Assembly: GCA_964641255.1 (NCBI GenBank)
Contig: CAZXMM010000002.1
Span: forward strand, 1 to 61,140
DNA: 61,140 nucleotides
Direction: 5' to 3'
Source: an uncultured Gammaproteobacteria bacterium
Lineage (GTDB): Bacteria; Patescibacteriota; Microgenomatia; JAMCZE01
Shown: piece after piece, positions 8,937 through 56,806 of the stretch
Layout: each line of letters starts with the position of its first letter
Numbering within the stretch: position 1 is the stretch's first letter
The notes under the pieces: generated by a model
What the model was told of the DNA's origin: nothing
Databases searched by the model: none
Seen by the model: the letters and a program-made list of their open reading frames with translations, nothing else
Made by a program: the position numbers and the translations under genes

Positions 8937-8970
<34 letters not shown>

Positions 8971-32123: not shown

Positions 32124-32170
<47 letters not shown>

Positions 32171-35121: not shown

Positions 35122-35154
<33 letters not shown>

Positions 35155-35197
35155 GATCTCGCCCAAGCGTCCACAGCGACGGCGTGGTTTGGCACCT

Positions 35198-35534
35198 TAA
35201 ATAAGACATTGGGGTGATATGAAAGTAATTTCGTACCAATAGTTATCATAGAAAGTCTTTTTGAAATGTAAATTCAGCTAATATCGGTGAAATCCTGAGT
35301 TACCCATTGGACACTTGAGAGAGTGAGAGTAACGGATAATACCGAGGGAAGTCGACACAAACAGTGTTTGACCCCGTATCGACTGATTTCTTAGCAACTT
35401 GTTGTTAAGAATGAGATTGAGAATAAATCGATATCAACTCAATCACACGCTGACCCCTGACAATTATCAGGGTGAAGATATAGTCAGATCTCTTCAGAAA
35501 CGAAGAGTGCAAAATTCCATTTTTTGGAATATTG
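35198..35534 (+). mobile_element. ORF-less group I intron in 23S at the E. coli ~2500 site
   Basis: 337 nt between GGCACCT and CGATGTCGGCTCATC. 5' exon ends in T, intron ends in G. ATACCGAGGGAAGTC...GACCCCGTA and GAAGATATAGTC motifs are shared with 16S intron 2. Confidence 0.75.
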
Positions 35535-35957
35535 CGATGTCGGCTCATCCTATCCTGGGGCTGGAGAAGGTCCCAAGGGTCCGGCTGTTCGCCGGTTAAA
35601 AGGGTACGCGAGCTGGGTTCAGAGCGTCGTAAGACAGCTCGGACTCTATCCAGTATGTCCGTGGGAATTTTGAGGGGAGTTGAGCCTAGTACGAGAGGAC
35701 TGGCTTGAACGAATCCCTGGTGTGCCAGTTGTTCCGTCAGGAGCATCGCTGGGTAGCTATATTCGGATTGGATAAGCGCTGAAAGCATCTAAGTGCCAAG
35801 CCAACCCCAAGATAAGAATTCCATCCCCACCTCGGTGGGGTGAAGACCCCTGGTAGACTACCAGGTTGATAGGCGACGAGTGTAAGGCCAGTAATGGTTT
35901 CAGCTGAGTCGTACTAATTTGGTCGAATGTAGATTATTCTTTGCAGTTAAAAATACG

Positions 35958-36015: not shown

Positions 36016-36141
36016 GTTCTGTCGGTCTCTTGAGCGGTCTGGAACCACTCCTTCCCATTCCGAACAGGGATGTGAAACGGGCCAGCGTCGACAATACTTG
36101 ATGGGAAACTTTCTGGGAAGATAGATCGAGGCCGGTAGAAC
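36016..36141 (+). rRNA. rrf: 5S rRNA
   Basis: CCCATTCCGAACAGGGATGTGAAACGGGCCAGCG core. Termini GTTCTGTCGG/CCGGTAGAAC pair, extended by the perfect flanking complement TACGAATTGTTCT/AGAACAATTCGTA. Confidence 0.8.
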
Positions 36142-40960: not shown

Positions 40961-42100
40961 ATGAAGCTCTCCGAGTCGGCTGCCCTGACTTTATTTGCTA
41001 ATCACGGCCTTGCGCACCCCAAGTTCATTGTTACCTACGCTTCCGGATTAGCTAGATTACCTAAAGGTGACCATTTTGTTCTAAAAGCTAACGGGGCGGT
41101 GGGGGGGAAAAAGAAACTAGGACTGGTAGAAATTGCCAAGCGGACAGAAGTGGGGAAGAAAGTCAAAGAGCTACTTGGGAAAAGCACGCCACAATTGCCG
41201 TTTGATTCAATTCTCGTTCAGGAATTTGTTCCCCATGACAAGGAATATTATTTGGCTCTAAAAGCGGTTCGTGAAGGCGTAGAAATCTATTTTTCAGAGC
41301 TGGGGGGCATAGAAATTGAATCCCATTGGGAGAAGGTAAGAAAGCTAGTTATAACTACAGACGAACTCATGGAAACGGGCTATTCGGAAGAAAAATTGGC
41401 AGATCTTATTCCCAATTCCTTCATTCAGGATTTTACGAAAGACGCCCTGCTATTTTTTACTGCGGAGGACGCGACCTATTTGGAAATTAATCCGATTGTG
41501 GTGACCAAAGACTATCAGGCAATACCACTGGGCGTGGTTCTTGTTCTTGATGAAGCTGCCAAGTTTCGCCATCCCAATTGGCCCAGTGAGTCGGTTAGTG
41601 GGACTAAGTCGCCGAGAGAAAAAAGAGTTGCCGAGATTGACGCCCAAATTAAGGGCTCAATAAAACTGGTCGAAGTGCCAGGAGGCGGGGACACCGCTAT
41701 TCTTCCTGGTGGAGCAGGAGCCGCGCTATTTTTGTGTGATGCCATTGTAAAAAACGGCTTAAAACTGGCCAATTATGCCGAGTTTTCTGGCAATCCCCCA
41801 GATTTTGCGGTGGCGGAACTGACCAGACAAGTCTGTGCCCTGCCTGGGATTAAAAATTTAGTGATTGGTTCGGGGATTGCCAATTTCACTTCGGTGGTAG
41901 GTAATGTGCGGGGTATTATTGAAGGGTTTAAGTCTTCTCCACAAGCCAAAAAACTCAATATTGTGATCAGGCGGTGTGGTCCCGGGGAAGACGAAGCGAT
42001 TGAACTAATGAAGAGCTTTGTCAAAGAGTCGGGCATGAAGATCCAAGTATTTGGGAGAGAAACAGGGATGACAACTATTGTGGCTAAGCTAAATGATTAA
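40961..42100 (+). CDS. ATP-grasp subunit, ATP-citrate lyase B / citryl-CoA synthetase large subunit / SucC-like
   Basis: 379 aa with a SucC-like N-terminus (KLSESAALTLFANHGLAHPKF) and ATP-grasp layout. 8-bp overlap with the next gene. Confidence 0.65.
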   Translation: MKLSESAALTLFANHGLAHPKFIVTYASGLARLPKGDHFVLKANGAVGGKKKLGLVEIAKRTEVGKKVKELLGKSTPQLPFDSILVQEFVPHDKEYYLALKAVREGVEIYFSELGGIEIESHWEKVRKLVITTDELMETGYSEEKLADLIPNSFIQDFTKDALLFFTAEDATYLEINPIVVTKDYQAIPLGVVLVLDEAAKFRHPNWPSESVSGTKSPREKRVAEIDAQIKGSIKLVEVPGGGDTAILPGGAGAALFLCDAIVKNGLKLANYAEFSGNPPDFAVAELTRQVCALPGIKNLVIGSGIANFTSVVGNVRGIIEGFKSSPQAKKLNIVIRRCGPGEDEAIELMKSFVKESGMKIQVFGRETGMTTIVAKLND

Positions 42101-43028
42101 TTCTTTTCGCACCATTCTTATCGGGGGAGACTCTGCTAAAAAGGCGGCTAGCCGGATTGGGGAGTTTGACTATCTTTGCGATTTGCCGTTTTCTGTGTCG
42201 GCTTTTATCAATCCGTCCGCTTCGGCTAGATTTCAACTCGTCAGTTCTGGTGACACCTGGCACGATGTTCCCACCTATCACACCTTAGCCGAAGCGGTCA
42301 AAAATGATCCGAACAGTGATACAGTAAGTATTCATTTTAACGCGAAGTATGTCCTTTTCTGGGTACAAGAAGTGATCAAGTTTAATCAGCTAAAAAATGT
42401 AGTTATTTTGGCCGAAGACGTCCCTGAAAGAGATGCCAGAGAGATTGTGGCACTGCAAAAAAAATATGGCCTTAACATTCTTGGCCCCTCGTCACTCGGA
42501 ATGATCATTCCTGGCAAAGGGCGCGTGGGCGAGATTGGGGGAGATTTTAAAAATCTGCAGCTATGTAGACTGGATAAACCCGGTCCGGTCGGTCTAATCA
42601 CCAAATCCGGAGGGATGTCTGGAGAACTAATGTGGGTAATTTCTCAGCACACCCCAGGTCTATCCGGTATTTTCCAAATTGGCGGCGACGCTTTTCCTGC
42701 TACAGATTTTGTCCACTGGTTAGACTTTTTTACTCGCGAGCCAACCACTAAGGTGGTGGTGTTATCAGGCGAAGCTGGGGGAGACTTAGAAGAACGTGCG
42801 GCAGCGTGGATTAAACTACATAAACCCCGCTATAAAGTCGTTGCGGTGATTTCTGGTAGATTTTTGGAACAAATGCCCAAAGGACAAAAATTTGGCCATG
42901 CCGGGGCGATGCAAGAAGAGTCGGGTTTTGGCTCAGCAGCCCATAAAGTCAAAGTCTTAAAAGAAGCGGGAGTGGAAGTGGTAGAATTTGAGGAGTTAGC
43001 AAAGACCCTAGAAAATTCGAACCTGTGA
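42093..43028 (+). CDS. CoA-ligase alpha-type subunit, ATP-citrate lyase A N-terminal / citryl-CoA synthetase small subunit-like
   Basis: GPSSLGMIIPG, ITKSGGMSGEL, QIGGDAFPATDF and the phosphohistidine loop FGHAGA. An insert IGGDFKNLQLCRLDKPG resembles ACLY rather than SucD. Confidence 0.7.
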   Translation: MINSFRTILIGGDSAKKAASRIGEFDYLCDLPFSVSAFINPSASARFQLVSSGDTWHDVPTYHTLAEAVKNDPNSDTVSIHFNAKYVLFWVQEVIKFNQLKNVVILAEDVPERDAREIVALQKKYGLNILGPSSLGMIIPGKGRVGEIGGDFKNLQLCRLDKPGPVGLITKSGGMSGELMWVISQHTPGLSGIFQIGGDAFPATDFVHWLDFFTREPTTKVVVLSGEAGGDLEERAAAWIKLHKPRYKVVAVISGRFLEQMPKGQKFGHAGAMQEESGFGSAAHKVKVLKEAGVEVVEFEELAKTLENSNL

Positions 43029-43273
43029 TTAAAAGATATTTGATTATCGGGATAGGCGCCTATTTGGCGATTGGGGCTGGGGTCATGGCACTAACGATAG
43101 CCAAAATTTACCCCGGGATACCGCTTAGTTGTCCGGAAGTAAACATTTACGATTACCCGTGTATAGATTTTTTTCCCTTTTATCTTGAGGAGGCCAAAAG
43201 TGCCCCATTCTGGTTTAGCGGAGTGCTTCTTTGGCCATACTATCTACTGATCCTAGTGTTGTATTGGAGATGA
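43025..43273 (+). CDS. small two-TM membrane protein embedded in the citrate-cleavage operon
   Basis: 82-aa ORF. Its GTG start overlaps the upstream stop (GTGA) and its stop overlaps the downstream ATG (ATGA at 43270-43273). Confidence 0.45.
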   Translation: MIKRYLIIGIGAYLAIGAGVMALTIAKIYPGIPLSCPEVNIYDYPCIDFFPFYLEEAKSAPFWFSGVLLWPYYLLILVLYWR

Positions 43274-44049
43274 CTATGAAAGATCTTCCAAAACCAGTTG
43301 AACCCCTGATTGTTTCCTCAGTTTCTCAGCGAAATCAGAACGACGAGATTTCTTATCGTGGTCATGCAGTGTCTGAATTATTAAGAGATAAACGCACGAT
43401 TGAAGAAGTTGTCTGGCTCCTTTGGACTGGAAAATTGCCATCTAAAATTGAGGCAGAATTAGCTCGAACTATTATTGTCATGGTCGCTGATCATTCTCCG
43501 GGTGTGGCTGGTGCCTATGCCACCATTTTGGCAGCCTCTGCGGGGCTGTATATGCCTCAGGCGGTGGCAGCGGGCGTACAAATGATTGGGCCACGGTTTG
43601 GGGGAGCTGCAGGCATGGCTGCCGAAGCTTTTAAGCAGGCGGTAGACCATGATTTTACTGTTGAGCAATTTGAAGATTGGGCAAAAAAAACAAAGGGCTG
43701 GCATACTTTTCCAGGCATTGGTCACAAAATTTTTTCTCGTTCCCGTCCCGATAGTCGGGTTGCTGAACTTAAAACATTTGCAAAAAAAAATTTGAAGCAA
43801 ACAGCTCATTTAGATTTTGCGGTCAAACTGGAGGAAGCACTTCTCAAAAAAAATGAAAAACTTATTCTCAATGTTGACGGTGCAATTGGTGCAATTCTTA
43901 TGGATGTAGGGTTCCCTTTGGAAGGTGTTGATGGCTTCTTTATTCTTTCCCGAACAATCGGCCTCATTGCCCACTACATTGATCAGAAAGAGCGGGGGAC
44001 GGGCCTTATTCGCTTACCAGAAGAGCTAGTCATGTATAAACAAAAATAG
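43270..44049 (+). CDS. citryl-CoA lyase-like protein (citrate-synthase fold, ACLY C-terminal module-like)
   Basis: VADHSPGVAGA, IGPRFGGA, PGIGHKIFS, LILNVDGAIGA and IGLIAHYIDQ. About 260 aa, too short for a full citrate synthase. ATG 43270 is preferred over the track start 43231. Confidence 0.7.
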   Translation: MTMKDLPKPVEPLIVSSVSQRNQNDEISYRGHAVSELLRDKRTIEEVVWLLWTGKLPSKIEAELARTIIVMVADHSPGVAGAYATILAASAGLYMPQAVAAGVQMIGPRFGGAAGMAAEAFKQAVDHDFTVEQFEDWAKKTKGWHTFPGIGHKIFSRSRPDSRVAELKTFAKKNLKQTAHLDFAVKLEEALLKKNEKLILNVDGAIGAILMDVGFPLEGVDGFFILSRTIGLIAHYIDQKERGTGLIRLPEELVMYKQK

Positions 44050-45390: not shown

Positions 45391-47397
45391 TTAGAGTGTC
45401 TGATTGAAGTATTTGGCAAAGCAGGCAAAGTCGACCATATTGATGGCGCCGTCGCCGTTACAATCTTGGCAGCTGGGATTATCTTTATCAGGACAGGCTG
45501 CGACTTTACAAGTAGCGTTTGGCCTTATACAACCGTCCCTGTTGGTACCGACTCCAATGACTTTTTGACAGGCACTATTTACGCAGGCCAGATAAAATTC
45601 TTCAGTGGTGTCGCCCCCGTTGTTATTGCCACTTCCTTCCTCAATACAGGTGGCTCCAGCGACTTTGTTAGCACAAGTGGGGCTATCAGCTGTAGCCGTG
45701 GTGGAGAGCTGACAGGTATTATTGGTGCCGCAAACTAAAAAGCCACTAGCAGGAGGAGGGGTTGTGTCACAACTCGCACCCTGGGTTTTACCGACACAGA
45801 GTGGATCGTCAGTAGTGGCAGTGGTGGACGGTTGACAAGCATTGCTAGAACAAATTAGCCTGGCAGTGGGTGGGGTACAAGTAGCTCCTGGAGTTTGGCA
45901 CTCGTCAGTACCAATTCCTGAGACTACCGTACAGGCATTATTTAAACAGGCTTTATGACTGGGGCTACTACTACAAGTACTGCCGGCGACGGCACAGGAG
46001 TCGGTGCCGGGGCCGTTGACCACCGTACAACTATTATTGCGACATTCTTTGTGGGTGGTACTTGAACCACAGCTTTGACCTATCGCTGTACACTGATTGC
46101 TACCAGCGCCCGCCACCCGCACACAGGCATCATTAATACACTCGTTATGACTGTCGGTTAGGCCACAAGTGCTGCCGCTGGGAGCACACTGGTCAGCTCC
46201 AGCTCCATCAACTTCGGTGCAAGCATTATTCACGCACTCGTTATGCTTGTTGGCATTACCGCAGGCGCTCCCTGGGGTAGCACATTGACTACTACCAGTG
46301 CCGGGGACACTAACACAGGCGTCGCTGACACAAATATTGTGAGAATTAGCCCCACAAGAGATACCAACTGGAGTACACTGGTCGGTTCCAGCTCCGGCCA
46401 CTTGGGTACAGGCATTATTGACACATTCATTATGTTTGGTACTGTCGCCGCAGCTTTCTCCGACTTCTTCACAGCTGTCAGTTCCCGGTCCCGCTACTTC
46501 AGTACAGGCGTTACTGACACAGACAGTATGGCTAGTTTGGGTAGGGTCAATAACTTCGATGGTGGCAGAACACTTTTCCGATCTTTGGTTGCCGTCTTTG
46601 ACCACGCCGCTAATTTCAAAGACGCCGGCGGTAGTAAAGGTGTGGGTCAAATTTTTCTTGGCCCCCGAATATTCCTGGCCCTCAATCGTAAAGATGTATT
46701 CCAGATTTTTAGCTTTAGTGGCCGGGATACCCACCATGGTGGCGGTAGCACTCAGGTTGGGCAAATTACCAAAACTGGGGTTGACTGTCAGTTCGTCGCA
46801 GACTGGTTCGGGAGCGCTGCTGGCCGCCCGGATGACATAGTTGGCGTTTTTAATTACGGCCGCGTCCATGACGTTCTCTCCCTTTTTAGTCGTTTTTAGG
46901 AAAGATTGGGTTTGGTCAACAGTAACATTGGTAGCGTTAGTCGTGGTCGCTTTTCCGCGCAGGACAAAAGTAAAAAGAACTCCGCCCGCAAAAGTTTGTT
47001 TTTTGGCTAACTTGGTTTGAACGATGATGGTGCCGGTAGCGTTAGCTTCTTTAGCAGTCGATTTTTTAACAATCTTGCCGAGTTTTTTAGCGTCGATTTT
47101 TGGTTCTCCCACCACTTTGAGATAAGTCTTGTCAAATTTGATGACGATTTTTGTGCTATTAACCGGTTTTTTAGTCGACAGCAGGACACTGACGTTAATA
47201 TTTTTCTTCGCGGCTGTATTGGAGGTTTTGGGAGTAATCTCCACGACTGTATCGGCAGCCGCTTGGGAGAAGAAAGAAATCCGGTCTTTAAAGAAAAAGG
47301 TGGTGCCAACGATGGCAATGGCTATAACGGGAAGGATAGTGACTATTAAGAGAAGTTTAAGATTGCGAAAAAGATTCACTCTCTCAGTATTTCGCAA
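45391..47397 (-). CDS. secreted modular protein: cohesin-like domain, PKD-like domain, ~10 four-Cys modules, dockerin-like C-terminus
   Basis: N-terminal anchor LLLIVTILPVIAIAIVG. Cohesin-like VVEITPKTS...VLFTFVLRGKA. PKD-like CDELTVNPSFG...THTFTTAGVFEISGVVKDGN. Tandem HNECVNNACTQVAGAGTDQCTPVGISCG-type units (+ strand about 45470-46533). The end reads CQDCNGDGAINMVDFACFAKYF. Confidence 0.75.
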   Translation of the reverse strand: MRNTERVNLFRNLKLLLIVTILPVIAIAIVGTTFFFKDRISFFSQAAADTVVEITPKTSNTAAKKNINVSVLLSTKKPVNSTKIVIKFDKTYLKVVGEPKIDAKKLGKIVKKSTAKEANATGTIIVQTKLAKKQTFAGGVLFTFVLRGKATTTNATNVTVDQTQSFLKTTKKGENVMDAAVIKNANYVIRAASSAPEPVCDELTVNPSFGNLPNLSATATMVGIPATKAKNLEYIFTIEGQEYSGAKKNLTHTFTTAGVFEISGVVKDGNQRSEKCSATIEVIDPTQTSHTVCVSNACTEVAGPGTDSCEEVGESCGDSTKHNECVNNACTQVAGAGTDQCTPVGISCGANSHNICVSDACVSVPGTGSSQCATPGSACGNANKHNECVNNACTEVDGAGADQCAPSGSTCGLTDSHNECINDACVRVAGAGSNQCTAIGQSCGSSTTHKECRNNSCTVVNGPGTDSCAVAGSTCSSSPSHKACLNNACTVVSGIGTDECQTPGATCTPPTARLICSSNACQPSTTATTDDPLCVGKTQGASCDTTPPPASGFLVCGTNNTCQLSTTATADSPTCANKVAGATCIEEGSGNNNGGDTTEEFYLACVNSACQKVIGVGTNRDGCIRPNATCKVAACPDKDNPSCQDCNGDGAINMVDFACFAKYFNQTL

Positions 47398-47410
47398 TTG
47401 GGCAGTAATG

Positions 47411-47656
47411 TCAACGACTACCCGAACAATTGTCCTTGGTTGGATTAGCGCTTGTTGTCATGATTACCTGTTGCCGGTTTTGAGCAAGTAGTACTAACTT
47501 TTCGAATTCATTACATACAGTTATGGCACTAATCACATACGCAGATATTTGCTGTGAATTATTTGAACTCTGGATCATACGAGCGAATTCACAAGGTTTC
47601 CCTGAAACACCACAAATACATTTTTGACTATTTACTTCTGTACCTACTGTATTCAT
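47411..47656 (-). CDS. small hypothetical protein upstream of the modular protein gene
   Basis: 81-aa ORF ending 13 nt before the downstream start. Confidence 0.3.
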   Translation of the reverse strand: MNTVGTEVNSQKCICGVSGKPCEFARMIQSSNNSQQISAYVISAITVCNEFEKLVLLAQNRQQVIMTTSANPTKDNCSGSR

Positions 47657-47697
47657 GAGAATCTGATTTTCTCATTTTTCCCTAAATTTGTCCATCC

Positions 47698-48126
47698 TTG
47701 ATCACCTATAGTATAATTAGGGCAGATATGATTTCTAAAACTGAGAGTTTAGCCTTTCCCCAAAGACAGATCCCTCGGGGCGTGGAAGTCTTTGGCAGTC
47801 CCACGTTGGGGAATCTCGCTTTGGTGCCGGCACGAGCGGATGATACTGTAGATTACAACGTTCGCGATGGTCAAGATAAGCTGGTCTGTGGTTTGAAAAG
47901 TTTCGGGGCCAGAGGAGGCTCTGTTCGGATTTCTCAATCTTCAGAGGAAATACATATTCTTTCAGATTTACCTGTAGGGGTGGGGGAAGTTCGACTAATA
48001 TCGAGAGGGGGGAAACTACCAGTGATGTTTGTTATAGGAGATGCAACGGACAGCATTACTGTTGTGACTCTCACTCCTAGAGATTGGGTTCTTTTGCTGT
48101 CTGGACTGAGAAACGCAATAAAGTAA
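47698..48126 (+). CDS. hypothetical protein
   Basis: 142-aa ORF with no motif. Confidence 0.35.
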   Translation: MITYSIIRADMISKTESLAFPQRQIPRGVEVFGSPTLGNLALVPARADDTVDYNVRDGQDKLVCGLKSFGARGGSVRISQSSEEIHILSDLPVGVGEVRLISRGGKLPVMFVIGDATDSITVVTLTPRDWVLLLSGLRNAIK

Positions 48127-48218
48127 CACGCCACTGCTTCTTTTACAAAATTACGCTCCTTAGCGACCAATGAAGAGATCTCAGATCTAGCAGAGTTGCT
48201 ATCTGTTAAGATGTCCTC

Positions 48219-49520
48219 ATGGGAAAAAGGGTAGCGAGTACTTTTGTTTGCCAACAGTGTGGTTACCAGTCGCCAGCATTTTTAGGGCGCTGTCCCAGCT
48301 GTCAGGCTTGGAATAGTTTGGTGGAAACACTCGAGGATACAAGGGCGGTCAGAAATCAGCGGCCTAATCCTACTACTAGTCGCCCGGTTAAGTTGGCTGA
48401 AATTTCCAACACCGTGCTTACTCGGCAGACTACAGGAATTACCGAATTGGATTTGGTGTTGGGGGGCGGGGTGGTGCCTGGCATGGTTACCCTTCTCACT
48501 GGCGAGCCGGGGATCGGCAAATCTACTCTTCTGTTAGATTTGGCTGCCAATTGGCCCGACCCAGTCTTATACGTGGCTGGAGAAGAAAGTGCCAGTCAGA
48601 TTAAACTTCGGGCGCAGCGACTGGGGATCACTTCTAACAAGATTATCATTTTAGAAGCAACAGACGTCGATGCTATTACTGAACAAGTCAGTCAGTTGGC
48701 CACCGTCAGTCTCATTATTGTTGATTCAGTCCAAACCCTCACGACTGGGGATTTAGCTGGCATGGCGGGGACGGTGGGCCAGGTGCGGGAGTGCAGTGCC
48801 AGGCTGATTGCGGCGGTCAAGCCGCGGGGGATCCCACTTTTTTTGGTGGGCCACGTCACTAAGGAGGGAACAATTGCCGGGCCCAAGGTGCTGGAGCACG
48901 CAGTGGACACTATCATCTTACTGGAAGGGGAAAAGTTTAGCCCCTTGCGGTTGGTGCGGAGCCAAAAAAACCGTTTTGGTCCCACAGATGAAGTGGGAGT
49001 GTTTGAGATGACAGAGGGGGGGTTTAAAGCAGCAGACGTGGCCAATTTAACTAATCTGACTACTTTGCCCAGTGGATCCGGTTCTTGTCTCACGGTGGCG
49101 CTGGAAGGTAGTCGGCCCATTCTTGTAGAGATTCAGGCTTTAGTGACTTCAACCCCACTGCCTAACCCTAGGCGGGTGGGAGCGGGGGTAAGTTACAATC
49201 GGTTACTAACGATAGTCGCAATACTACAAAAGCACTTAAACCTCCCACTTTACAAAGAAGATATTTACGTCAATGTGGCTGGGGGATTATCAGTAACTGA
49301 GCCGGCGGCCGATTTGGCTATTGCCCTGGCCATTATTTCTAGCTACCGCGATAAACCACTAGCTCCTCAAAGCTTGGCTATTGGCGAGCTTGATTTACTG
49401 GGCCACGTTCGCCCGGTGCAAAATGAAGACAAGCGTCTTAAAGAAGCCAAAAAATTGGGTCTGACCCATATTTTCTCCAGTAGCAATTTGCGCACCCTGT
49501 CCCAGTTTAGTCATAACTAA
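48219..49520 (+). CDS. radA: DNA repair protein RadA/Sms
   Basis: N-terminal zinc finger CQQCGYQSPAFLGRCPSCQAWNS, Walker A GEPGIGKSTLLL, KNRFGPTDE and a Lon-like C-terminal domain. Confidence 0.9.
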   Translation: MGKRVASTFVCQQCGYQSPAFLGRCPSCQAWNSLVETLEDTRAVRNQRPNPTTSRPVKLAEISNTVLTRQTTGITELDLVLGGGVVPGMVTLLTGEPGIGKSTLLLDLAANWPDPVLYVAGEESASQIKLRAQRLGITSNKIIILEATDVDAITEQVSQLATVSLIIVDSVQTLTTGDLAGMAGTVGQVRECSARLIAAVKPRGIPLFLVGHVTKEGTIAGPKVLEHAVDTIILLEGEKFSPLRLVRSQKNRFGPTDEVGVFEMTEGGFKAADVANLTNLTTLPSGSGSCLTVALEGSRPILVEIQALVTSTPLPNPRRVGAGVSYNRLLTIVAILQKHLNLPLYKEDIYVNVAGGLSVTEPAADLAIALAIISSYRDKPLAPQSLAIGELDLLGHVRPVQNEDKRLKEAKKLGLTHIFSSSNLRTLSQFSHN

Positions 49521-49931
49521 ACTGGTATTGACACCCAGAAAAGTTATAACCAAACCAGTAAGGGCTCCAAAATTTTCGATCCCCAAGTTATCCCCAAGAC
49601 CCTGAAACCAGTTCCTAGAGGGAAAAAGCTTGATTTAACAGTCTTCCCTTCTTTCAATTACTATGGGTAGTACCTATAGTTGGAGAGATGTTAACTACAG
49701 GACTTGACAAGTCTGATTTTGTGTTATACACTCCCAAACAGAGAAGGCAGTCTCTAAAAAAAGTTTATGGCCTACAAAGGTAAGTTTTGGAAAAAGATTC
49801 GAAGGTGGTTAGGGCAAAAAATGTTGTTGTCCCAGGGGGGCAGTCAAACTGCCGTTCTTAGTCAACAGGTCGGTAAGCTCTTAAAACAGAGGGGTAGCGA
49901 GCTCATCACGATGACCACGCTTTAAAAATTT

Positions 49932-50306
49932 ATGTCGGAAAACTTTGTAAGATATCTAGATATGGCTATTGCTAGTGCTGCAGGAGGGCGGGGAGGAAAT
50001 ACTTTTTCGGCTCTGGCGGATCCTCGGGGAACTGGTGATTCAGTTCTTACGTCTGTGACTACTCGCGGACTTGGTGATGTGGCTGATCTTATTCAGGCTA
50101 ACCGACCCTTTTTGCAGGTGGTACAGGTTGTTGAGACGGTTAGGAGTGGTAGGAGAAGTGTGTTTAATGTCCTTGACTGTATTCATAGGTTGCCAAATGA
50201 GGGGGAAGCACAAAGACTTCTCCTTACAAGGGAGCAATTTTTAGGTTCTAGTTTTCAAATCGCTAGATCTCGTAGAAGTCGAAGTGGATCGGGTAATCGT
50301 AGATAA
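49932..50306 (+). CDS. hypothetical protein
   Basis: 124-aa ORF. TTGACA-17-TACACT lies at 49704-49732 upstream, with a 52-codon ORF (49767-49925) in between. Confidence 0.3.
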   Translation: MSENFVRYLDMAIASAAGGRGGNTFSALADPRGTGDSVLTSVTTRGLGDVADLIQANRPFLQVVQVVETVRSGRRSVFNVLDCIHRLPNEGEAQRLLLTREQFLGSSFQIARSRRSRSGSGNRR

Positions 50307-50551
50307 ATTTCACAAGTTAATAATAAAAACGCAAAAAGCATCACTTCCGCAGCCTGAGTGTCTCGAAAAGTGATGCTCAATTTGGTTTTTGATTTCTAGG
50401 CAGTAGAAATCAAAAACACATAAGTCTATTGATAGTGGATCAGAAGACAATTGTCAAATTGTTTTTCACGGTCAAATTCAAGACTTTAGCCTAGATTAAC
50501 GGTCATTATTTAGTACGGTTTTAACAGCCATACTTGGGGTGGTGCAAATGA

Positions 50552-52525
50552 GTGGTATTAGACAAGATTTTCAAGGTTGCCCATAAAATTGCCCAGACTT
50601 GGAAAGAATGGGAAGTGTTTGCTCCTCGCGTGCTTCTGGCTCTGATCGGCTTCGCCCTCTTGACTCTTTTCGTCCAGCTGTCACTGTCTACTTCTCGGGC
50701 GGCTAACTACTTCGGAGTCATAATTGAGCAGCCCATTCAGTCCAATGCTGAGGGTAGTGAGGCGGAAATGAATCTGCGTTTCACCAATGAAAATGATAGC
50801 GATGCGACCATTGTTGTTGTCAAAGCTAGGTGGAAGTGTAAGAAGCCGGGGCCAGCATATGGATCGGCCGTAATTACTTGTACTGAGACTAAGGTGGAGC
50901 CAGACGAGACCCAGACAATTGTGGTGGCTCCTGGGGATACTAAAAAAACCGGGAATTGGAAACAGCCAGTAGGAGGAACGGGTAATTGCGGAGCAGCTCA
51001 GGTAGATATGACTGTGACTATCAATGGACAAAGGACTCCAACAGATTTTTGGGGTGTAGCTTTCAAACCAAATAATTGTGAGGAGCCCAAATACACCTGT
51101 CAAAACAACGCCTGTCAACTATGTACTTCTGGAGACTGTAATACTAATAAGTGTAGTGGGCCAGGAGACCCGATTTGTAATACGGTCCAAACCCATTTTG
51201 AGTGTGATTCTGTCCAGGGAGCCTGTACTGGAGGACACCCTGGTCCTGGTGATAACGAAGCCCAGTGTAATGCTAAGTGTAAAAAGGTTGTTACTCACTA
51301 TAAGTGTAATGCCAACCAGACCTGTGCCCCCTTTACTTGTAACGAAGGTGATCCAGGTTGTTCGACGTCTTGTGATCGAAACGACCTTAACGCTTGTAAA
51401 AACCAAGTTACCAAGTACAAGTGTAATGCCAATAACTCTTGTGCTCCTTTCCAGTGTTATCCCGGGACTCCGGGTTGTGAAACGAGTTGTGATGTTAATA
51501 GTCCGGTTGCCTGTCAGGATCTAGTCACCAAGTATAAGTGTGACACTAATTTATCTTGTGCCCCTTTCCAGTGTTATCCGGGTACCCCTGGTTGTCTGAC
51601 GTCTTGTGATCGTTTTGATCCCTATGCCTGTCAGTCGACCGTGACTAAATATAAGTGTGATGCCAATGACACATGTGCCCCTTTCCAGTGTTATCCTGGG
51701 ACTCCAGGTTGCGTAACAAGTTGTGATCACAATAATCCTAACTCTTGTAAAACCCAGTCAGCAGTTTGTAACAGTTTGTCACTCAATCCTTCGGTTGGTA
51801 GTGACCCAGTCACCGTGACAGCCAATCTTAGTGGTCAAACTAACGGTGGAGGGTCGATTGTTGCCTATCGTTTTGCTTGGGGAGACGGGACGGAAACCGT
51901 TACTGGTAACTCTCAGACCACTCACACTTACAATATTCCGGGGACTTTCACTGTGGTTGGCTTTGTCAAAGACAACCTAGGCAACGAAGTGACTGACGTT
52001 AGTCGGTGTGTCAAAGAGGTGACTGTTAACTGTACTGATTGTACCGAGAAGACCCACGTGGAATGTATTAACAATCAGTGCCAAATCAGAAGTGGCGACG
52101 GCCCCCAGTCTTGTAGTTCTGACTGTGGTCAGGCGCACCACGTCTGTCGAAATGAGAGTTGCCAGTACATTGCCGGAGCTTTAAGAGACGGGGATGTTCT
52201 CTGCGCCAGTAATAAAGATTGTCAAAAAGACGAGTCAGAGCATTTGGAGTGTCGCAGCGGAGCTTGTACGATTGTAAAAGGAGCGGGATCCGATACTTGT
52301 TCCACTGATGCCAACTGTCAAACTAAGCCTACCCATACTGTCTGCCGGGATGAGGCGTGTATCACCCTCGCTGGCAGCGGTAAGAGTCAGTGTATCATGA
52401 GTTCCGATTGTGTCCGCACGGTAGTTTACGAGACTATTCCCAATACCGGCCCAGAAATGCCTATTCTTGGTGGCTTGTTTGGTAGTGGAATCTTGGGTTG
52501 GTTTATTAGAAAGCTCAAATTTTAG
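50552..52525 (+). CDS. cell-surface modular protein: six-Cys 39-aa repeats, PKD-like domain, four-Cys modules, LPXTG-like sorting signal
   Basis: N-terminal anchor. 4 x VTKYKC-x5-CAPFQCYPGTPGC-x-TSC-x7-C. PKD-like CNSLSLNPSVG...THTYNIPGTFTVVGFVKDNLGN. HVECINNQCQIRSGDGPQSC-type modules. The end reads IPNTGPEMPILGGLFGSGILGWFIRKLKF. Confidence 0.75.
   Translation: MVLDKIFKVAHKIAQTWKEWEVFAPRVLLALIGFALLTLFVQLSLSTSRAANYFGVIIEQPIQSNAEGSEAEMNLRFTNENDSDATIVVVKARWKCKKPGPAYGSAVITCTETKVEPDETQTIVVAPGDTKKTGNWKQPVGGTGNCGAAQVDMTVTINGQRTPTDFWGVAFKPNNCEEPKYTCQNNACQLCTSGDCNTNKCSGPGDPICNTVQTHFECDSVQGACTGGHPGPGDNEAQCNAKCKKVVTHYKCNANQTCAPFTCNEGDPGCSTSCDRNDLNACKNQVTKYKCNANNSCAPFQCYPGTPGCETSCDVNSPVACQDLVTKYKCDTNLSCAPFQCYPGTPGCLTSCDRFDPYACQSTVTKYKCDANDTCAPFQCYPGTPGCVTSCDHNNPNSCKTQSAVCNSLSLNPSVGSDPVTVTANLSGQTNGGGSIVAYRFAWGDGTETVTGNSQTTHTYNIPGTFTVVGFVKDNLGNEVTDVSRCVKEVTVNCTDCTEKTHVECINNQCQIRSGDGPQSCSSDCGQAHHVCRNESCQYIAGALRDGDVLCASNKDCQKDESEHLECRSGACTIVKGAGSDTCSTDANCQTKPTHTVCRDEACITLAGSGKSQCIMSSDCVRTVVYETIPNTGPEMPILGGLFGSGILGWFIRKLKF
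51290..51757 (+). repeat. four in-frame tandem repeats with an exact 117-bp period (coding)
   Basis: Unit starts at 51290, 51407, 51524 and 51641 (ACTCACTATAAGTG / ACCAAGTACAAGTG / ACCAAGTATAAGTG / ACTAAATATAAGTG). Units are diverged at synonymous and some non-synonymous sites. Confidence 0.8.
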
Positions 52526-52601
52526 TCTCTTTCTAGAGAGGGGTATACCGGTTGGGCAGGCCGGTGTATCCCTTTCTAGGAAGAATATTTCGTGTGACCC
52601 C

Positions 52602-52630
52602 TTGACAAGGATTTGATTGAGAGGATAATT
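52602..52630 (+). promoter_or_regulatory. sigma70-type promoter TTGACA-17-ATAATT upstream of rho
   Basis: TTGACA at 52602-52607, 17-nt spacer, ATAATT at 52625-52630. Confidence 0.5.
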
Positions 52631-52685
52631 AGTTTTAGATTAACCCCAGGAACAACTGTCCTTTTTCCGAAAAATTTGCAAATAT

Positions 52686-54062
52686 TTGGCTATGCCTCCC
52701 AGATTTAATTCCCGACGTAATAACAATTTTGGTTCCCAGCCTGCGGGCTCATTTCCGCGCCGGGGCTTTTCGCGTCCTCAGAGAACCCCTTTTGCCCACT
52801 CCAATACTACCGATAATGCCAATGTGGCCCGTTATGATCCCGAGGATTTGATTGGCATGCCGCCGCCTACCACGGGAGAGGGAGAGATGAATGCCGCTAG
52901 CTCTACTGGACCACAGCCCCAGCGCCTGCACGATCTGGAAGATAGTTCGATTCAGACTCTTGAGCTTAAGGGAGTACTAGATATTACCCCGGAGGGTCAT
53001 GGCTATTTGCGCCCCAAATTTATTCCCTCGGACAAAGACGTCTATATTTCTCTGTCCCAAATTCGCCGGTTTAACCTTAGGCCAGGCGATGTGGTCACTG
53101 GGGTGGGTCGGCCACCAAAAGAGTCGGAACGCTATTTTGGACTGCTGCGAGTGGATAGTGTCAATGATTTGCCAGCCGATCAGGCGATGAACCGGCCCAG
53201 CTTTGACGACCTAGTACCCATCTATCCCGATATTCAGCTCAAGCTCGAGACTGGCCCACTGCCTTTATCAACGCGGATTATTGATCTAGTCGCTCCCATT
53301 GGTCGGGGTCAGCGGGGACTGATCGTGTCACCGCCTAAAGCTGGCAAAACTTGGTTACTCAAAGAGATCGCCAATGGTATTACTACCAACTATCCCGACT
53401 TTCATTTGATGGTGGCTCTGGTGGGGGAACGGCCGGAGGAAGTCACTGATATTAGTCGGGGGACCAAGGGCGAAGTGATTGCTAGTAATTTTGACCAATC
53501 GCCGGTGGAGCAGGTACGGGTGGCCGAAGTAACCATGGAGCGAGCCAAAAGACTGGTGGAGATGGGCAAAAATGTGGTTGTGCTACTCGATTCGATTACT
53601 AGACTGGCTCGGGCCTACAATTTGGCGATGCCCTCTTCTGGTCGCACCCTCTCAGGGGGGTTTGACCCCTCCGCTCTGTTCCCACCTAAAAAATTTCTGG
53701 GAGCCGCCCGCTGTGTCGAAGAGGGTGGGTCATTAACCATTATTGGAACTGCCTTAGTCGAGACCGACTCGCGGATGGATGATCTCATTTATGAAGAGTT
53801 TAAGGGTACCGGTAACATGGAGCTCCATCTGGACCGCAAACTGGCGGAGAGGCGGATCTACCCGGCCATTGATATTGGCAGAAGTGGCACGCGCAATTTT
53901 GAGCGCTTGGTCAGCCCAGAGAGGCTCAAACAACTTGATACTTTGATTCGGATGATTCACTTACTTAATGATTCGGAGCGCACCGAGGTGCTAATTGAAC
54001 GGCTCACTAAGACTAAGAGCAATGAAGAATTTCTAGAGACCTTAAGTGCCGGTGGAGTCTAG
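52686..54062 (+). CDS. rho: transcription termination factor Rho with an Arg/Asn/Pro-rich N-terminal extension
   Basis: RPGDVVTG in the OB/RNA-binding region, Walker A GQRGLIVSPPKAGKT, LDSITRLARAYN and GTALVETDSRMDD. ATG at 52692 is the likely start. Confidence 0.9.
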   Translation: MAMPPRFNSRRNNNFGSQPAGSFPRRGFSRPQRTPFAHSNTTDNANVARYDPEDLIGMPPPTTGEGEMNAASSTGPQPQRLHDLEDSSIQTLELKGVLDITPEGHGYLRPKFIPSDKDVYISLSQIRRFNLRPGDVVTGVGRPPKESERYFGLLRVDSVNDLPADQAMNRPSFDDLVPIYPDIQLKLETGPLPLSTRIIDLVAPIGRGQRGLIVSPPKAGKTWLLKEIANGITTNYPDFHLMVALVGERPEEVTDISRGTKGEVIASNFDQSPVEQVRVAEVTMERAKRLVEMGKNVVVLLDSITRLARAYNLAMPSSGRTLSGGFDPSALFPPKKFLGAARCVEEGGSLTIIGTALVETDSRMDDLIYEEFKGTGNMELHLDRKLAERRIYPAIDIGRSGTRNFERLVSPERLKQLDTLIRMIHLLNDSERTEVLIERLTKTKSNEEFLETLSAGGV

Positions 54063-54111
54063 AGAGTAGAGTTGACCGCTTCTTATTACAATAGTAAAAT
54101 TACTCCCACAC

Positions 54112-55212
54112 ATGGTGATTGTTGATTTTGGAGCTGATTTAGTGGAGTTTGGTAAAACTCTTGGTTGGTATACCTCCCGGAAACTGCGTTTTTTGGGTGA
54201 TAATTTTGAAAGCGCTAAAGGTTTAGTGGTGGATATTCTCAAAGCCAGACGGGGGACCTACCAAAAACCCTTTTTGCACGTAGGAATGGTGTTTTTAATG
54301 GTGACAGTAATTCTGTTGGCTCCGATAATTGCGACAGAATATCCTAGTGCTTTTGCCGCCTCTGATTCTTTATCTATAGCTCCTCCTCCCTCCGCTATTT
54401 TAAGTGCCGCAGACATTACCAATATGGATACAGTGACAAAGGAGTCGGAAAAACCGCGTAAAGAGGTTTTAAACTACACGGTTAAAGGCGGAGATACTTT
54501 GTCTGGAGTAGCTAAAGCTTATGGTGTTGATGTTGACTCGATTGTCTACCTCAATGACTATGCCTCTGCCAACAAGGTGCTCAAGCCAGGTGATGTGGTT
54601 AAAATCCCACCAGTCTCAGGAGTAATTGTTAAGGTCAAATCCGGGGATACGATCGCTTCACTGGCTAAAAAGTATGGACTGGCTAGTTCCCAGTCAATTG
54701 TCGATTGGCCGTATAACGAGTTTGCCAATGACGAGACATTTGCACTTTCTGCCGGTCAAAGTCTCGTTATCCCCGGCGGCAAGGCTCCCGAAGACGTGCC
54801 GCTTAATTTGCCGGTCTTTAGGACGCCCCAGACAATGTTTGCTGGTGGTAGTGGCCAATTTGGCTGGCCCACTCAAGGGATTATTACTCAGTACTATAGT
54901 TCCTATCACAGTGGTCTCGACATCGCTAGTGGGATTGGTACTCCAGTGTTAGCTGCTGATGCCGGTAGGGTGGAATCAGTAATTTATGAGAAAGTCGGCT
55001 ACGGGATCCATATCATTGTAAACCATGGTAATGGCTTAAAAACCCTTTACGGCCACCTGTCCCGAGTTAGTGTCGCTGAGGGTCAAAACGTGGGTCGGGG
55101 AGATCTCTTGGGTGATATGGGTAGTACTGGCCGCTCCACTGGGCCCCATCTCCATTTTGAAATTATGTCCGCCGTTGGCGCACGGACTAATCCTCTTTCG
55201 TTTCTCAAATAG
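54112..55212 (+). CDS. LysM-domain M23-family peptidoglycan metallopeptidase
   Basis: Two LysM repeats (YTVKGGDTLSGVAKAYGV, VKVKSGDTIASLAKKYGL). M23 motifs HSGLDIA and GSTGRSTGPHLHFEI. N-terminal TM helix. Confidence 0.85.
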   Translation: MVIVDFGADLVEFGKTLGWYTSRKLRFLGDNFESAKGLVVDILKARRGTYQKPFLHVGMVFLMVTVILLAPIIATEYPSAFAASDSLSIAPPPSAILSAADITNMDTVTKESEKPRKEVLNYTVKGGDTLSGVAKAYGVDVDSIVYLNDYASANKVLKPGDVVKIPPVSGVIVKVKSGDTIASLAKKYGLASSQSIVDWPYNEFANDETFALSAGQSLVIPGGKAPEDVPLNLPVFRTPQTMFAGGSGQFGWPTQGIITQYYSSYHSGLDIASGIGTPVLAADAGRVESVIYEKVGYGIHIIVNHGNGLKTLYGHLSRVSVAEGQNVGRGDLLGDMGSTGRSTGPHLHFEIMSAVGARTNPLSFLK

Positions 55213-55214
55213 TT

Positions 55215-55288
55215 TGGTGGACCATACCGGAATCGGACCGGTGTTTCTACAATGCGAATGTAGCGCACTACCACTATGCTAATGGCCC
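55215..55288 (-). tRNA. tRNA-Ala: tRNA-Ala (CGC), CCA encoded
   Basis: Reverse complement folds as GGGCCAT/ATGGTCC acceptor with G3:U70, anticodon arm CTACA-TTCGCAT-TGTAG, T arm ACCGG-TCCGATT-CCGGT, ACCA end. Confidence 0.85.
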
Positions 55289-55330
55289 AACTAGTTTACT
55301 GATTATAACAATAGTTGTATTCTAGATTAT

Positions 55331-56806
55331 ATGTTTAGTGTGAAGCCTAGACGTTTGGTTGTTTTAGGGGCGCTTTTTGCTTTAGCTGTTTTGCTTGTAG
55401 TACTACTACTAACCGTCTTGCGGGTGCAAAACCGAGCGGCCACTATTACTCAACCCCGGGCTGACTGGATTGAGTGTAAAGATCACATCACGAGTGATGG
55501 TAAGGGCGACGAAAAACCGTTTTGTTTTAGTAGCAAATTAATAAAGTGTGTCGGGACTCCCGATCATGTGACCATGTATGTCCATGATCCTTGTCTCAAC
55601 GTGGGGTGCGATCCTGCTACTAATAAGTGTAATGCTAGCGCTCCCGTCTGTCCAGCTGATAAGGGTTATGGGGTTTGTCGTCCGGGGCGCTTTTGTGTGG
55701 AGCCCGGAGATATTGGTATCCCTGGTTGCTATTTGGATTATTGTGGTAAATCTCAGCCCGAACATACTATTTTAGCTGGCGGGGCTTGCTACTATGATGA
55801 CGAATGTGTTGCGGGTTTAGGCTGTAGTACTGCTGGTAATGGTACTTGTAATCAGGGTGTTTGTGAAGAAGATGCCCCTCCACCCCCTGGAGGAAATAAT
55901 GGTGGCGGTGGCGGTGGCGGGGGCGGAGGAAGTGGCACTACTACTACCACTACCACTACTCCTCCACCAGCCACTCCCGGTGACCCCCGGGGGTGTAATA
56001 GTAGTAGTCCGAATGATGTCTGGGCGTGCTACCAAAAGACTGGCAGTTGCAGTGGCAGCTGGGCCTGCCATGATAGTCCTGGATCCAGTGCCTGTCCCGA
56101 AGCCTGTGGTGGACTCTCTAGCTGTAGTAAGGATAAGGACTGTGAGAGTGGGGAAATGTGTAAGGACGGCAAATGTACTGGTAACTCCTGTAAGAGTGAC
56201 AGTGATTGTAGTGGAAATAAAGCCTGTATTGATGATACCTGTTACCGTCGGGGTCAAACCCACCTGGCCTGTATAGAAAATGCCTGTACCCGGGTAGTAG
56301 GTAAAGGTGACCATCAAGACGGTTGTACCAGTGATAGTGCCTCCTGTGTCACTCCCGTCACTACTCATCTCACCTGTGGAGTGGATAACACCTGTAGACG
56401 GGTGGAAGGTAGCGGGACTAGTACCTGTTTGTCAGAAGGGAGCGTCTGTGTCCAGAGAGCTACTTATCTGACTTGCAGGAATAGTACGTGTACTAGAGTC
56501 ATTGGCACTGGCACTAGTACCTGTGTGTCAGAGAATAGTGCCTGTGGGACTCCCACTGCTACCCACCTCACCTGTGGTACTGATAAGACGTGTAAACGGG
56601 TAGCTGGTAGTGGCACTAGCACCTGTAGTTCAGAAGGTAGTCCCTGTGGTGGAGTCAGTGAGTGTTGGGGAAATGAAGGAGTGGATGGCCAGTGCTACGA
56701 TGTCAATGGTGACTCTGTTATCAATATCCTGGACTTCTCCTGCGTCAGTAACCTCTGGTTAGCGGATATCACTCCCACTAGTAGTCCTAAGTGTGGGGGG
56801 AGGTAG
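55331..56806 (+). CDS. secreted Cys-rich modular protein: Gly/Thr linker, four-Cys modules, dockerin-like C-terminus
   Basis: N-terminal anchor LVVLGALFALAVLLVVLLLTVL. GGNNGGGGGGGGGSGTTTTTTTTPPP linker. THLTCGVDNTCRRVEGSGTSTCLSEGSVC-type units x4 (56258-56660). The end reads CYDVNGDSVINILDFSCVSNLW. Confidence 0.75.
   Translation: MFSVKPRRLVVLGALFALAVLLVVLLLTVLRVQNRAATITQPRADWIECKDHITSDGKGDEKPFCFSSKLIKCVGTPDHVTMYVHDPCLNVGCDPATNKCNASAPVCPADKGYGVCRPGRFCVEPGDIGIPGCYLDYCGKSQPEHTILAGGACYYDDECVAGLGCSTAGNGTCNQGVCEEDAPPPPGGNNGGGGGGGGGGSGTTTTTTTTPPPATPGDPRGCNSSSPNDVWACYQKTGSCSGSWACHDSPGSSACPEACGGLSSCSKDKDCESGEMCKDGKCTGNSCKSDSDCSGNKACIDDTCYRRGQTHLACIENACTRVVGKGDHQDGCTSDSASCVTPVTTHLTCGVDNTCRRVEGSGTSTCLSEGSVCVQRATYLTCRNSTCTRVIGTGTSTCVSENSACGTPTATHLTCGTDKTCKRVAGSGTSTCSSEGSPCGGVSECWGNEGVDGQCYDVNGDSVINILDFSCVSNLWLADITPTSSPKCGGR

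Follow-up and report, generated by a model that had tools for sequence, protein, structure and literature searches.

A four-cysteine repeat, predicted to form hairpins, in exported proteins of CPR bacteria and DPANN archaea

What is the unit of some 30 residues, framed by four cysteines, that recurs in several surface proteins encoded on one contig? The stretch of DNA analysed here (the window) comprises 61,140 nucleotides of contig CAZXMM010000002.1 (assembly GCA_964641255.1), deposited under the name of an uncultured Gammaproteobacteria bacterium. The initial annotation, made from the letters of the window, had reported about twenty copies of a four-cysteine module in five secreted proteins, here carriers A to E (Table 1). 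It saw in them a stalk or spacer used combinatorially in surface proteins, and it suggested a profile search, a structure prediction of tandem units and a phyletic map. We count about 21 units, those of A and B being of a diverged subtype. They belong to a family that is concentrated in ultra-small bacteria of the Candidate Phyla Radiation (CPR) and in DPANN archaea. Each unit probably acts as a disulfide-braced hairpin bead, that is, as a modular spacer or stalk element of surface proteins.

The repeat and its conservation

On translation of the window the reading frames of all five carriers were found as earlier described. A hidden Markov model (HMM) built only from the seven canonical copies of carrier C was run against the 624 six-frame open reading frames (ORFs) of at least 40 residues. 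It finds D (E = 1.5e-9) and E (E = 2.4e-4), with B and A next in rank. A second profile (A1), built from 80 units, identifies 16 significant units, eight in C and four each in D and E, with per-unit E-values of 1e-6 to 1e-12. C units 1 to 7 score 34.6-44.4 bits each (E = 4e-9 to 4e-12) and C unit 10 scores 27.0 bits (E = 9e-7). The four units of D reach 27.3, 27.8, 42.6 and 35.7 bits, and those of E 30.5-35.0 bits (E = 3e-9 to 7e-8). The strict unit pattern is matched 14 times in the window and not once after 200 shuffles of the whole proteome; when each Cys-rich protein was shuffled with its composition preserved, there was at most one match.

About five of the units (two in C, two in B and one, cut, in A) form the diverged subtype, which has neither the His nor the G-x-G of the canonical unit and reads S-T-T-A-T instead. 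The copies in B and A are non-significant with profile A1 (E = 0.072 and 0.64), though they rank fourth and fifth of all ORFs. In C the subtype units are 8 and 9. Both retain the four Cys, and each of their positions has its counterpart in canonical units of P0002, a homologue that is 45% identical to C over its full length and whose units 1 to 7 align one-to-one with those of C. The S-T-T-A-T subtype is therefore a diverged form of the four-cysteine unit. The partial unit of A matches C unit 9 at 13 of 19 residues, with one gap. The roughly ten tandem copies that had been read in C are present, eight being significant by A1 and two of the subtype.

The seven canonical copies of C share 48-71% DNA identity (mean 55%), with 38% identity at third codon positions versus 64% at positions 1 and 2, and Tandem Repeats Finder detects no array at the C units. 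The copies are old and under protein-level selection. Their low DNA identity and the lack of a detectable array mean that the repeat is not an assembly artefact, as had been argued from the divergence of the copies; the same gene is also present on other assemblies.

An alignment of 1435 distinct units, drawn from the window, 165 retrieved proteins and 119 genome loci, gives the consensus x-H-x-x-C-x4-C-x-x-V-x-G-x-G-x-[DN]-x-C-x5/6-C for a unit of about 30 residues. Of the distinct units, 1343 span all four Cys positions, and none of these lacks a Cys. The His three residues before Cys1 is conserved in 96% of units, both glycines of G-x-G in 93%, the Asp/Asn in 88% and the Val in 75%; in 55% the residue before Cys4 is Asp. 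Spacing is most often C-x4-C-x10-C-x5-C (64%), whereas C and E have a C-x6-C closing loop, found in a minority of 10%. Where diverged units stand among canonical ones, they retain the four Cys with their spacing and the rest drifts (64 of 98 such segments hold exactly four Cys), which is the behaviour of a cystine framework. The Cys totals of B, C, D and E are all even (Table 1).

Predicted fold and relation to known families

C units 2 to 5 were modelled with AlphaFold2 (AF2) from a 73-row alignment of in-register four-unit blocks. The model has a mean predicted local distance difference test score (pLDDT) of 84.8 and a predicted template modelling score (pTM) of 0.38, and it predicts one hairpin for each unit. 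The high pLDDT combined with the low pTM suggests beads without a fixed mutual orientation. In the predicted hairpin, strand 1 (x-H-x-x-C-x) passes through a two-residue N-N or N-x turn into strand 2 (x-C-x-x-V-x), which is followed by an irregular segment. Cys1 and Cys2 would be direct cross-strand partners, one pair away from the pair that closes the turn. In the established geometry of beta-sheets such a position is the non-hydrogen-bonded one, at which cross-strand disulfides are favoured.

Mean-field direct-coupling analysis (DCA) was performed on 1294 units. Since pseudocount artefacts dominate the invariant Cys and His columns, only pairs of non-invariant positions were used. The couplings 3-12, 4-13 and 6-11 agree with the hairpin. 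Weaker couplings (11-24 and 4-20) put the Cys3-Cys4 loop on the His2/Val11/Val13 face, opposite the side chains of Cys1 and Cys2, and this placement favours pairing of Cys1 with Cys2 and of Cys3 with Cys4. Taken with the register of the modelled hairpin, the couplings make this disulfide pairing probable.

Such a unit would be familiar in kind, as a small cystine-framed extracellular spacer repeat, but the family itself is not described in the libraries searched. The initial annotation had not recognised a named domain, and we find none that covers the unit. Pfam-A (2025 copy, 24,736 models) and NCBIfam 20.0 contain nothing that covers it in the window proteins, and the excised unit arrays give no match there even at E <= 10. 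Among 67 relatives, nothing in either library covers the unit in register. Against PDB sequences (hmmsearch) a four-unit alignment (A4) returned no match, and A1 returned one chance match of 12 residues (E = 0.44). Foldseek comparison of the four-unit model gave nothing at E <= 0.001, the best rows being at E = 2.2 (PDB) and 3.4 (BFVD); the only weak rows are repeats of the clostridial toxins TcdA and TcdB (E = 2-9). Look-ups of the protein clusters of the carriers returned 'hypothetical protein' or no name, and the literature searched does not describe the unit, speaking of cysteine-rich extracellular CPR proteins in general terms only. The four-cysteine family is thus without a match in the domain and structure libraries searched.

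The unit shares several properties with disulfide-rich extracellular mini-domains: its carriers are exported, its Cys framework is invariant and even, and a DsbA-like gene is present. Eukaryotic disulfide-rich modules build rod-like or spaced extracellular proteins. EGF-like, thrombospondin type 1 and type 3, low-density lipoprotein (LDL) receptor class A and BAD-1 repeats are tandem cystine-braced beads of 17-45 residues, and the unit would resemble them in this; in BAD-1 of Blastomyces, disulfide-constrained loops are repeated 41 times (PMC3708853). The unit has no sequence or fold match to these repeats and differs from them in its C-x4-C-x10-C-x5/6-C spacing, its His/G-x-G signature and its occurrence in prokaryotes of two domains. 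A second comparison is with the Pro/Thr/Ser-rich linkers of Gram-positive LPXTG proteins and of MdbA/DsbA, which take the same positions, between an anchor and a domain or before a sorting signal. Those linkers are unstructured and of low complexity, whereas the unit is predicted to be a folded, cystine-framed domain.

Distribution, architectures and possible role

A search of 1.84 billion representative proteins with the single-unit profile returned 1224 proteins at E <= 1e-3; 501 of them pass E <= 1e-10 and 108 pass E <= 1e-30, the richest having about 20 units. A homologue search with the four-unit alignment A4 returned one protein. Genomes, one per GTDB species, were scanned with a degenerate DNA pattern for H-x-x-C-x-N-N-x-C-x-x-V-x-G-x-G, which samples the N-N subtype only, and the loci were translated and scored with the profile. 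This gave at least 119 loci, with up to 32 units per locus among the matches listed.

By the labels of their records, CPR/Patescibacteria account for at least about 43 loci with units, Peribacteria and Peregrinibacteria having up to 32 units; the other CPR groups represented are Parcubacteria, Saccharibacteria, WWE3, Gracilibacteria, Dojkabacteria, Beckwithbacteria, Yanofskybacteria, Liptonbacteria and Jorgensenbacteria. Archaea, almost all of them DPANN, contribute at least about 31 loci. Micrarchaeota have up to 22 units, and units also occur in Woesearchaeota, Pacearchaeota, Nanoarchaeota, Iainarchaeum and Altiarchaeota, several of them on contigs of 100-580 kb. A Diapherotrites protein (P0033) with 14 units lies on a 637-kb contig. 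At least 13 further loci with units come from third-party annotation (TPA) metagenome-assembled genomes (MAGs) labelled 'uncultured Gammaproteobacteria', and at least five carry other labels (Eisenbacteria, Bdellovibrionales, unclassified). By comparison, none of about 27 listed pattern loci in ordinary bacteria (Mesorhizobium, Bacteroidota, Clostridia and others) has units; these are chance matches of the pattern. A scan of 2.9 million viral contigs with the same DNA pattern found nothing. The family centres on two groups of ultra-small organisms, CPR bacteria and DPANN archaea.

Peribacteria MAGs, including those from Rifle, carry arrays of 7-32 units (L007, L048, L067, L072 and L121, among the matches listed). 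Large and very cysteine-rich extracellular proteins have been reported from Peribacteria and proposed to serve rigidity or attachment, with a mention of weak similarity to Myxococcus repeats (PMC4736985). These giants of Anantharaman et al. 2016 are probably carriers of the unit. The available part of that paper treats their Cys content and localisation only and defines no repeat unit, fold or spread into DPANN.

In the window a hydrophobic N-terminal segment is visible in the translations of all five carriers, as the initial annotation had stated. Among 155 relatives, 120 have such a segment; a sortase-type end was seen in 19 and a hydrophobic segment at the C-terminus in 20. Domains accompanying the unit in 67 relatives include PKD (10), DUF4215 (5), CARDB (4), VWA, Big, trypsin, cohesin, a pilin N-methyl motif and DsbA. 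Between one unit and the next there are 951 gaps; 589 of them measure five residues or less and 54 exceed 60 residues, so that the unit serves in tight arrays and also as a lone connector. The latter use is exemplified by locus L046 (264-4106, Woesearchaeota, on a 576-kb contig), where Ig-like domains of about 95 residues are separated by single units and the C-terminal transmembrane anchor has one unit directly before it. We note that this archaeal surface protein of 1280 residues is rich in N-x-S/T sequons.

The end domains are stable, but the units change quickly in number and place, as is seen on comparing carrier D with the protein at its genomic position in the related locus L001. In the latter, 15 canonical units lie on the N-terminal side of the PKD domain; D has four, on the C-terminal side; the six-Cys modules of D (Table 1) sit where the L001 counterpart has canonical units. 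The counterpart ends in VPATG, a hydrophobic stretch and RKLRGIKA. The C-terminus of D, IPNTGPEMPILGGLFGSGILGWFIRKLKF, has the composition of an LPXTG-type sortase substrate ([LIV]PxTG, hydrophobic stretch, basic tail) and follows its four units directly.

A gene for a DsbA-like thiol-disulfide oxidoreductase, already recognised by the initial annotation, adjoins carrier A. Its product matches Thioredoxin_4 (E = 3.4e-38, 131.9 bits, cut-off 23.2) and DSBA (E = 9.6e-18, 65.1 bits, cut-off 25.6). In six of the 150 best representatives a DsbA-like domain is fused to the unit array itself, in the order anchor, 7-13 units and C-terminal DsbA-like domain with a CGMC site. The array occupies the place of the Pro/Thr-rich linker in the DsbA-like protein of the window, so array and unstructured linker appear interchangeable as tethers. 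In these six relatives (P0057, P0076, P0064, P0134, P0048 and P0103) the oxidoreductase sits on a stalk that it may itself oxidise. The MdbA-like thiol-disulfide oxidoreductase family is reported to be enriched in CPR (10.1101/335083). The DsbA-like protein of the window is thus a candidate oxidant of the units.

We can then propose how the units would work. The carriers would be exported via Sec and the Cys of each unit then oxidised to two disulfides by the DsbA/MdbA-like oxidoreductase. Every unit would consist of a hairpin with Cys1 and Cys2 across its strands, a bend at G-x-G and a short loop closed by Cys3-Cys4. Placed one by one or in arrays of as many as about 32, such beads could form protease-resistant, semi-rigid spacers or stalks, and these would hold PKD, CARDB, VWA, Ig-like, DsbA or dockerin-like tips off the membrane or the sortase attachment point. 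The combinatorial use on the cell surface that the initial annotation envisaged finds support in the anchors, the partner domains, the DsbA fusions and the variable number of units.

Several points weigh against this proposal. The DCA signals that bear on the pairing are weak (about 2, versus 3-4 for the hairpin pairs), and no natural two-Cys half units were found, only two anecdotal C-x4-C remnants. A pure spacer would have no use for the near-invariant His or the frequent D-x-D-C loop, which could mark a metal or ligand site. The spacer role is argued from architecture only. The window contains no sortase or VKOR gene, and a scan for the sortase motif TLxTC found nothing in it. Disulfides are also less expected in anoxic water, the habitat of many CPR and DPANN organisms.

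Of the alternatives, one is that the units are multivalent adhesive repeats which bind glycans or proteins of the host-cell envelope during episymbiotic attachment. The concentration of the family in episymbiotic CPR and DPANN lineages would suit such a role. So would the length of the arrays (up to 32 units among the matches listed), their rapid remodelling between related genomes and the high variability of surface positions, as expected under host-driven diversification; attachment is also one of the functions proposed for the Peribacteria giants (PMC4736985). Conservation is, however, limited to the framework residues (Cys, Gly, Val, His and Asp/Asn), and no conserved surface patch is visible. 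Single units link Ig-like domains and arrays carry DsbA, so that binding is not needed to explain them, and the carriers already possess typical binding domains (PKD, VWA, CARDB). We consider adhesion by the units themselves unlikely.

A metal-stabilised knuckle, in which the four Cys and the His coordinate a zinc or iron centre and no disulfides form, has a smaller chance still. Small prokaryotic Cys4 modules are usually zinc-binding, and here four invariant Cys and a His conserved in nearly all units lie within 30 residues; many of the host organisms are anaerobes. The archaeal 'dark' Cys-rich domains are also assumed to bind zinc (PMC13607799). Yet the carriers are exported, and the DsbA-like oxidoreductase gene lies next to one of them and is fused to arrays in six relatives. 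The unit has neither the C-x2-C or C-x2-H knuckles of zinc ribbons and zinc knuckles nor their cytoplasmic, nucleic-acid context. Its spacings are C-x4-6-C and C-x5-6-C, and Cys1 and Cys2 are predicted to lie in strands, unlike the C-x2-C knuckles at turns. Each window carrier has 0-2 CxxC, and the CxxCH haem motif of c-type multihaem cytochromes occurs in none of the five. Judged from strand alternation in the model, the His side chain would also point to the face opposite Cys1 and Cys2.

That the unit is a diverged member of a named Cys-rich family (DUF7107, DUF4215 or an EGF/LDLa type) is improbable. The case for DUF7107 (PF23416) is a match of 27.5 bits, above the cut-off of 24.6, on the relative P0005, whose loops read C-S-x-[DN]-x-D-C, and a match to one of the 67 sampled relatives. 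Like the unit, DUF7107 is a short, uncharacterised Cys-rich domain, on which the literature searched gave nothing; it differs in length, with 48 residues versus 30. We rejected it as the identity of the unit because the match on P0005, 50 residues long, runs out of register across three units, covering the Cys3-Cys4 loop of one, the whole of the next and the hairpin of the third. DUF7107 also gave no match to C, D, E, B or the excised arrays at limits of E <= 1 to 10. DUF4215 (PF13948, the Myxococcus cysteine-rich repeat) is likewise a prokaryotic, extracellular, tandem cysteine-rich repeat; it co-occurs with the unit in five of the 67 relatives, and the weak resemblance to Myxococcus repeats mentioned for the Peribacteria proteins (PMC4736985) would point the same way. 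Its profile is nevertheless unmatched in the window proteins, and in relatives it lies outside the arrays: in P0023 it occupies 412-441, beyond the unit array at 3-387. Neither DUF7107, DUF4215, EGF nor any other Cys-rich family matches the window proteins or arrays at E <= 10, and the PDB gave no sequence or fold match. Finally, although the carriers are rich in Cys, Gly, Ser and Thr, in which short motifs recur easily, the shuffle tests, the detection across proteins by HMM, the 1224 carriers elsewhere, the mean DNA identity of the copies and the presence of the gene on other assemblies leave practically no chance that the pattern is an effect of composition, low complexity or assembly.

With the disulfide-braced spacer bead as the favoured reading, a wider one can be stated tentatively, as a possibility that falls well short of being probable. 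The unit may be a previously unnamed family, a near-signature of CPR and DPANN spread by gene transfer across the domain boundary, which serves disulfide-braced stalks presenting host-contact or envelope-maturation domains. If so, a thiol-oxidising surface biology would be common to both groups, even in anoxic habitats. CPR and DPANN organisms account for much of microbial diversity. Their life is spent in attachment to other cells, and their surface proteins are mostly unannotated. The module is recognisable and can be searched by profile, and it marks more than 1,200 representative protein clusters. The profile is a handle for finding and parsing surface proteins, for placing domain boundaries and for designing expression constructs. 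The distribution raises the question why two unrelated lineages with the same lifestyle share the unit, and the module connects the MdbA/DsbA-like oxidoreductases enriched in CPR with a definite, abundant group of probable substrates. With no fold match, the compact cystine-framed hairpin bead of 30 residues predicted here may also interest protein engineers. If the unit is only a spacer, the gain is a new domain-family entry and better annotation, not new biology.

Carrier proteins and genome setting of the window

The carriers combine the units with different partner segments (Table 1). The initial annotation had named PKD-like, cohesin-like and dockerin-like parts and a sortase-type signal as partners. 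The PKD domain and the sortase-type signal of D hold up, the former with a Pfam E-value of 1e-8. The dockerin-like ends stay below threshold, and the cohesin-like part was not confirmed in the window proteins.

Table 1 Features of the window (positions from the first nucleotide of the 61,140-nucleotide stretch)
Feature	Position	Strand	Description
Carrier A	1-649	-	cut by window edge, 216 aa read, 4 Cys; N-terminal anchor, domain, start of a subtype unit
A, opening of subtype unit	2-58	-	last 19 residues, GFLICDNNACKKSTTATAT
DsbA/MdbA-like thiol-disulfide oxidoreductase	705-1514	+	membrane-anchored; CPFC motif, Pro/Thr-rich linker
Carrier B	4311-6071	+	586 aa, 16 Cys; N-terminal anchor, N-terminal domain, 2 subtype units, ~330-aa unannotated domain
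B units 1-2	4902-5096	+	diverged subtype, x-C-x-N-N-A-C-x10/11-C-x8/9-C
Carrier C	45391-47397	-	668 aa, 46 Cys; N-terminal membrane anchor, beta-rich region, PKD-like segment, 10 units, dockerin-like C-terminal segment
C dockerin-like C-terminal segment	45403-45465	-	D-x-N-x-D-G-x-I-N-x-x-D, like one dockerin half-repeat
C units 8-10	45499-45864	-	units 8 and 9 S-T-T-A-T subtype, unit 10 near-canonical
C units 1-7	45868-46533	-	canonical, [ST/K]-H-x-x-C-x4-C-x-x-V-x-G-x-G-x-D/N-x-C-x6-C
Carrier D	50552-52525	+	657 aa, 58 Cys; N-terminal anchor, globular region, six-Cys 39-aa modules, PKD, 4 units, sortase signal
D six-Cys modules	51098-51751	+	related but distinct 39-aa modules, ~4-6 copies, residues ~183-400
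D units 1-4	52049-52420	+	spacings C-x4-C-x10/13-C-x3/5-C
D sortase-type sorting signal	52436-52522	+	IPNTG, hydrophobic stretch, RKLKF; read from translation
Carrier E	55331-56806	+	491 aa, 50 Cys; N-terminal anchor, Cys-rich region, Gly/Thr/Pro linker, more Cys-rich sequence, 4 units, dockerin-like end
E low-complexity hinge	55901-55975	+	residues ~191-215; poly-Gly run GGNNGGGGGGGGGG, then poly-Thr run, Pro-rich stretch
E units 1-4	56258-56656	+	T-H/Y-L-x-C ... C-x6-C
E dockerin-like end	56696-56785	+	

Carrier C gives weak Pfam matches to PKD_4 and Dockerin_1. The latter, at its C-terminal end, reaches E = 0.0066 and 17.1 bits, and the end of E reaches E = 7e-4 and 20.2 bits, both under the cut-off of 22.9. 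Each of these ends has one D-x-N-x-D-[GS]-x-I-N-x-x-D-F-x-C segment directly after the array, with extra conserved Cys before it; the second calcium-binding loop-helix segment of dockerin type I is absent from both. The dockerin-like end of C is also kept in P0002, and such an end occurs in just two of the 155 relatives. No cohesin partner for the ends of C and E was identified. The N-terminal region of C, examined for a cohesin, has no match in Pfam or among PDB sequences, and a homologue search with the N-terminal 255 residues of C returned nothing. An AF2 model of full-length C, made from a two-sequence alignment, has a pLDDT of 41, too poor for fold comparison.

The six-Cys modules of D follow the pattern [KH]-Y-K-C-x5-C-x4-C-x6-C-x3-C-x7/8-C. 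Tandem Repeats Finder reports them at 51352-51760 with a period of 117, 3.5 copies and 65% matches. We note that the module opens like the four-Cys unit, yet is unmatched by profile A1. In E, the low-complexity hinge separates two Cys-rich halves of the protein.

The domain of about 330 residues in B is common to a neighbouring secreted protein, ORF 1606-3201 (BLASTP E = 7e-44, 29% identity). It has no match in Pfam, NCBIfam or PDB sequences. Motifs conserved between the two copies are SGGYL.Y, E(E/L)WL, GHR.E.TMR, CGN.H and KWWLSH.P, and the domain may represent an unannotated extracellular enzyme family.

As to the organism, a small-genome and probably host-attached cell had been suggested, and the rRNA genes lend support to this. 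The 16S gene (8028-9460) is 22 kb from the 23S (31651-35938) and 5S (36021-36137) genes and thus unlinked from them. A LAGLIDADG ORF (9698-10240) and a group-II-like match (9641-9719) both lie just 3' of the 16S gene, and a second LAGLIDADG ORF (33733-34566) and a group I intron (35211-35507) both lie inside the 23S gene. Unlinked, interrupted rRNA genes are typical of CPR bacteria. The 16S sequence is 68.6% identical to that of E. coli. The window looks like part of a CPR-type genome.

The closest relative of the window is MAG GCA_964554695.1 (loci L001, L070, L102 and L117), which is titled 'uncultured Gammaproteobacteria bacterium'. As a lineage label, 'Gammaproteobacteria' conflicts with the divergence of the window 16S and with the CPR-type layout of its rRNA genes, and we rejected it. 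On this MAG and on a dozen other unit-bearing MAGs (SRP..._co, TPA) the label is probably a pipeline error.

At 40961-44049 lie three adjacent genes with ATP-citrate-lyase-type domains (Citrate_bind with ATP-grasp; CoA-ligase; citrate synthase C-terminal), which are unexpected in a metabolically reduced CPR-type genome.

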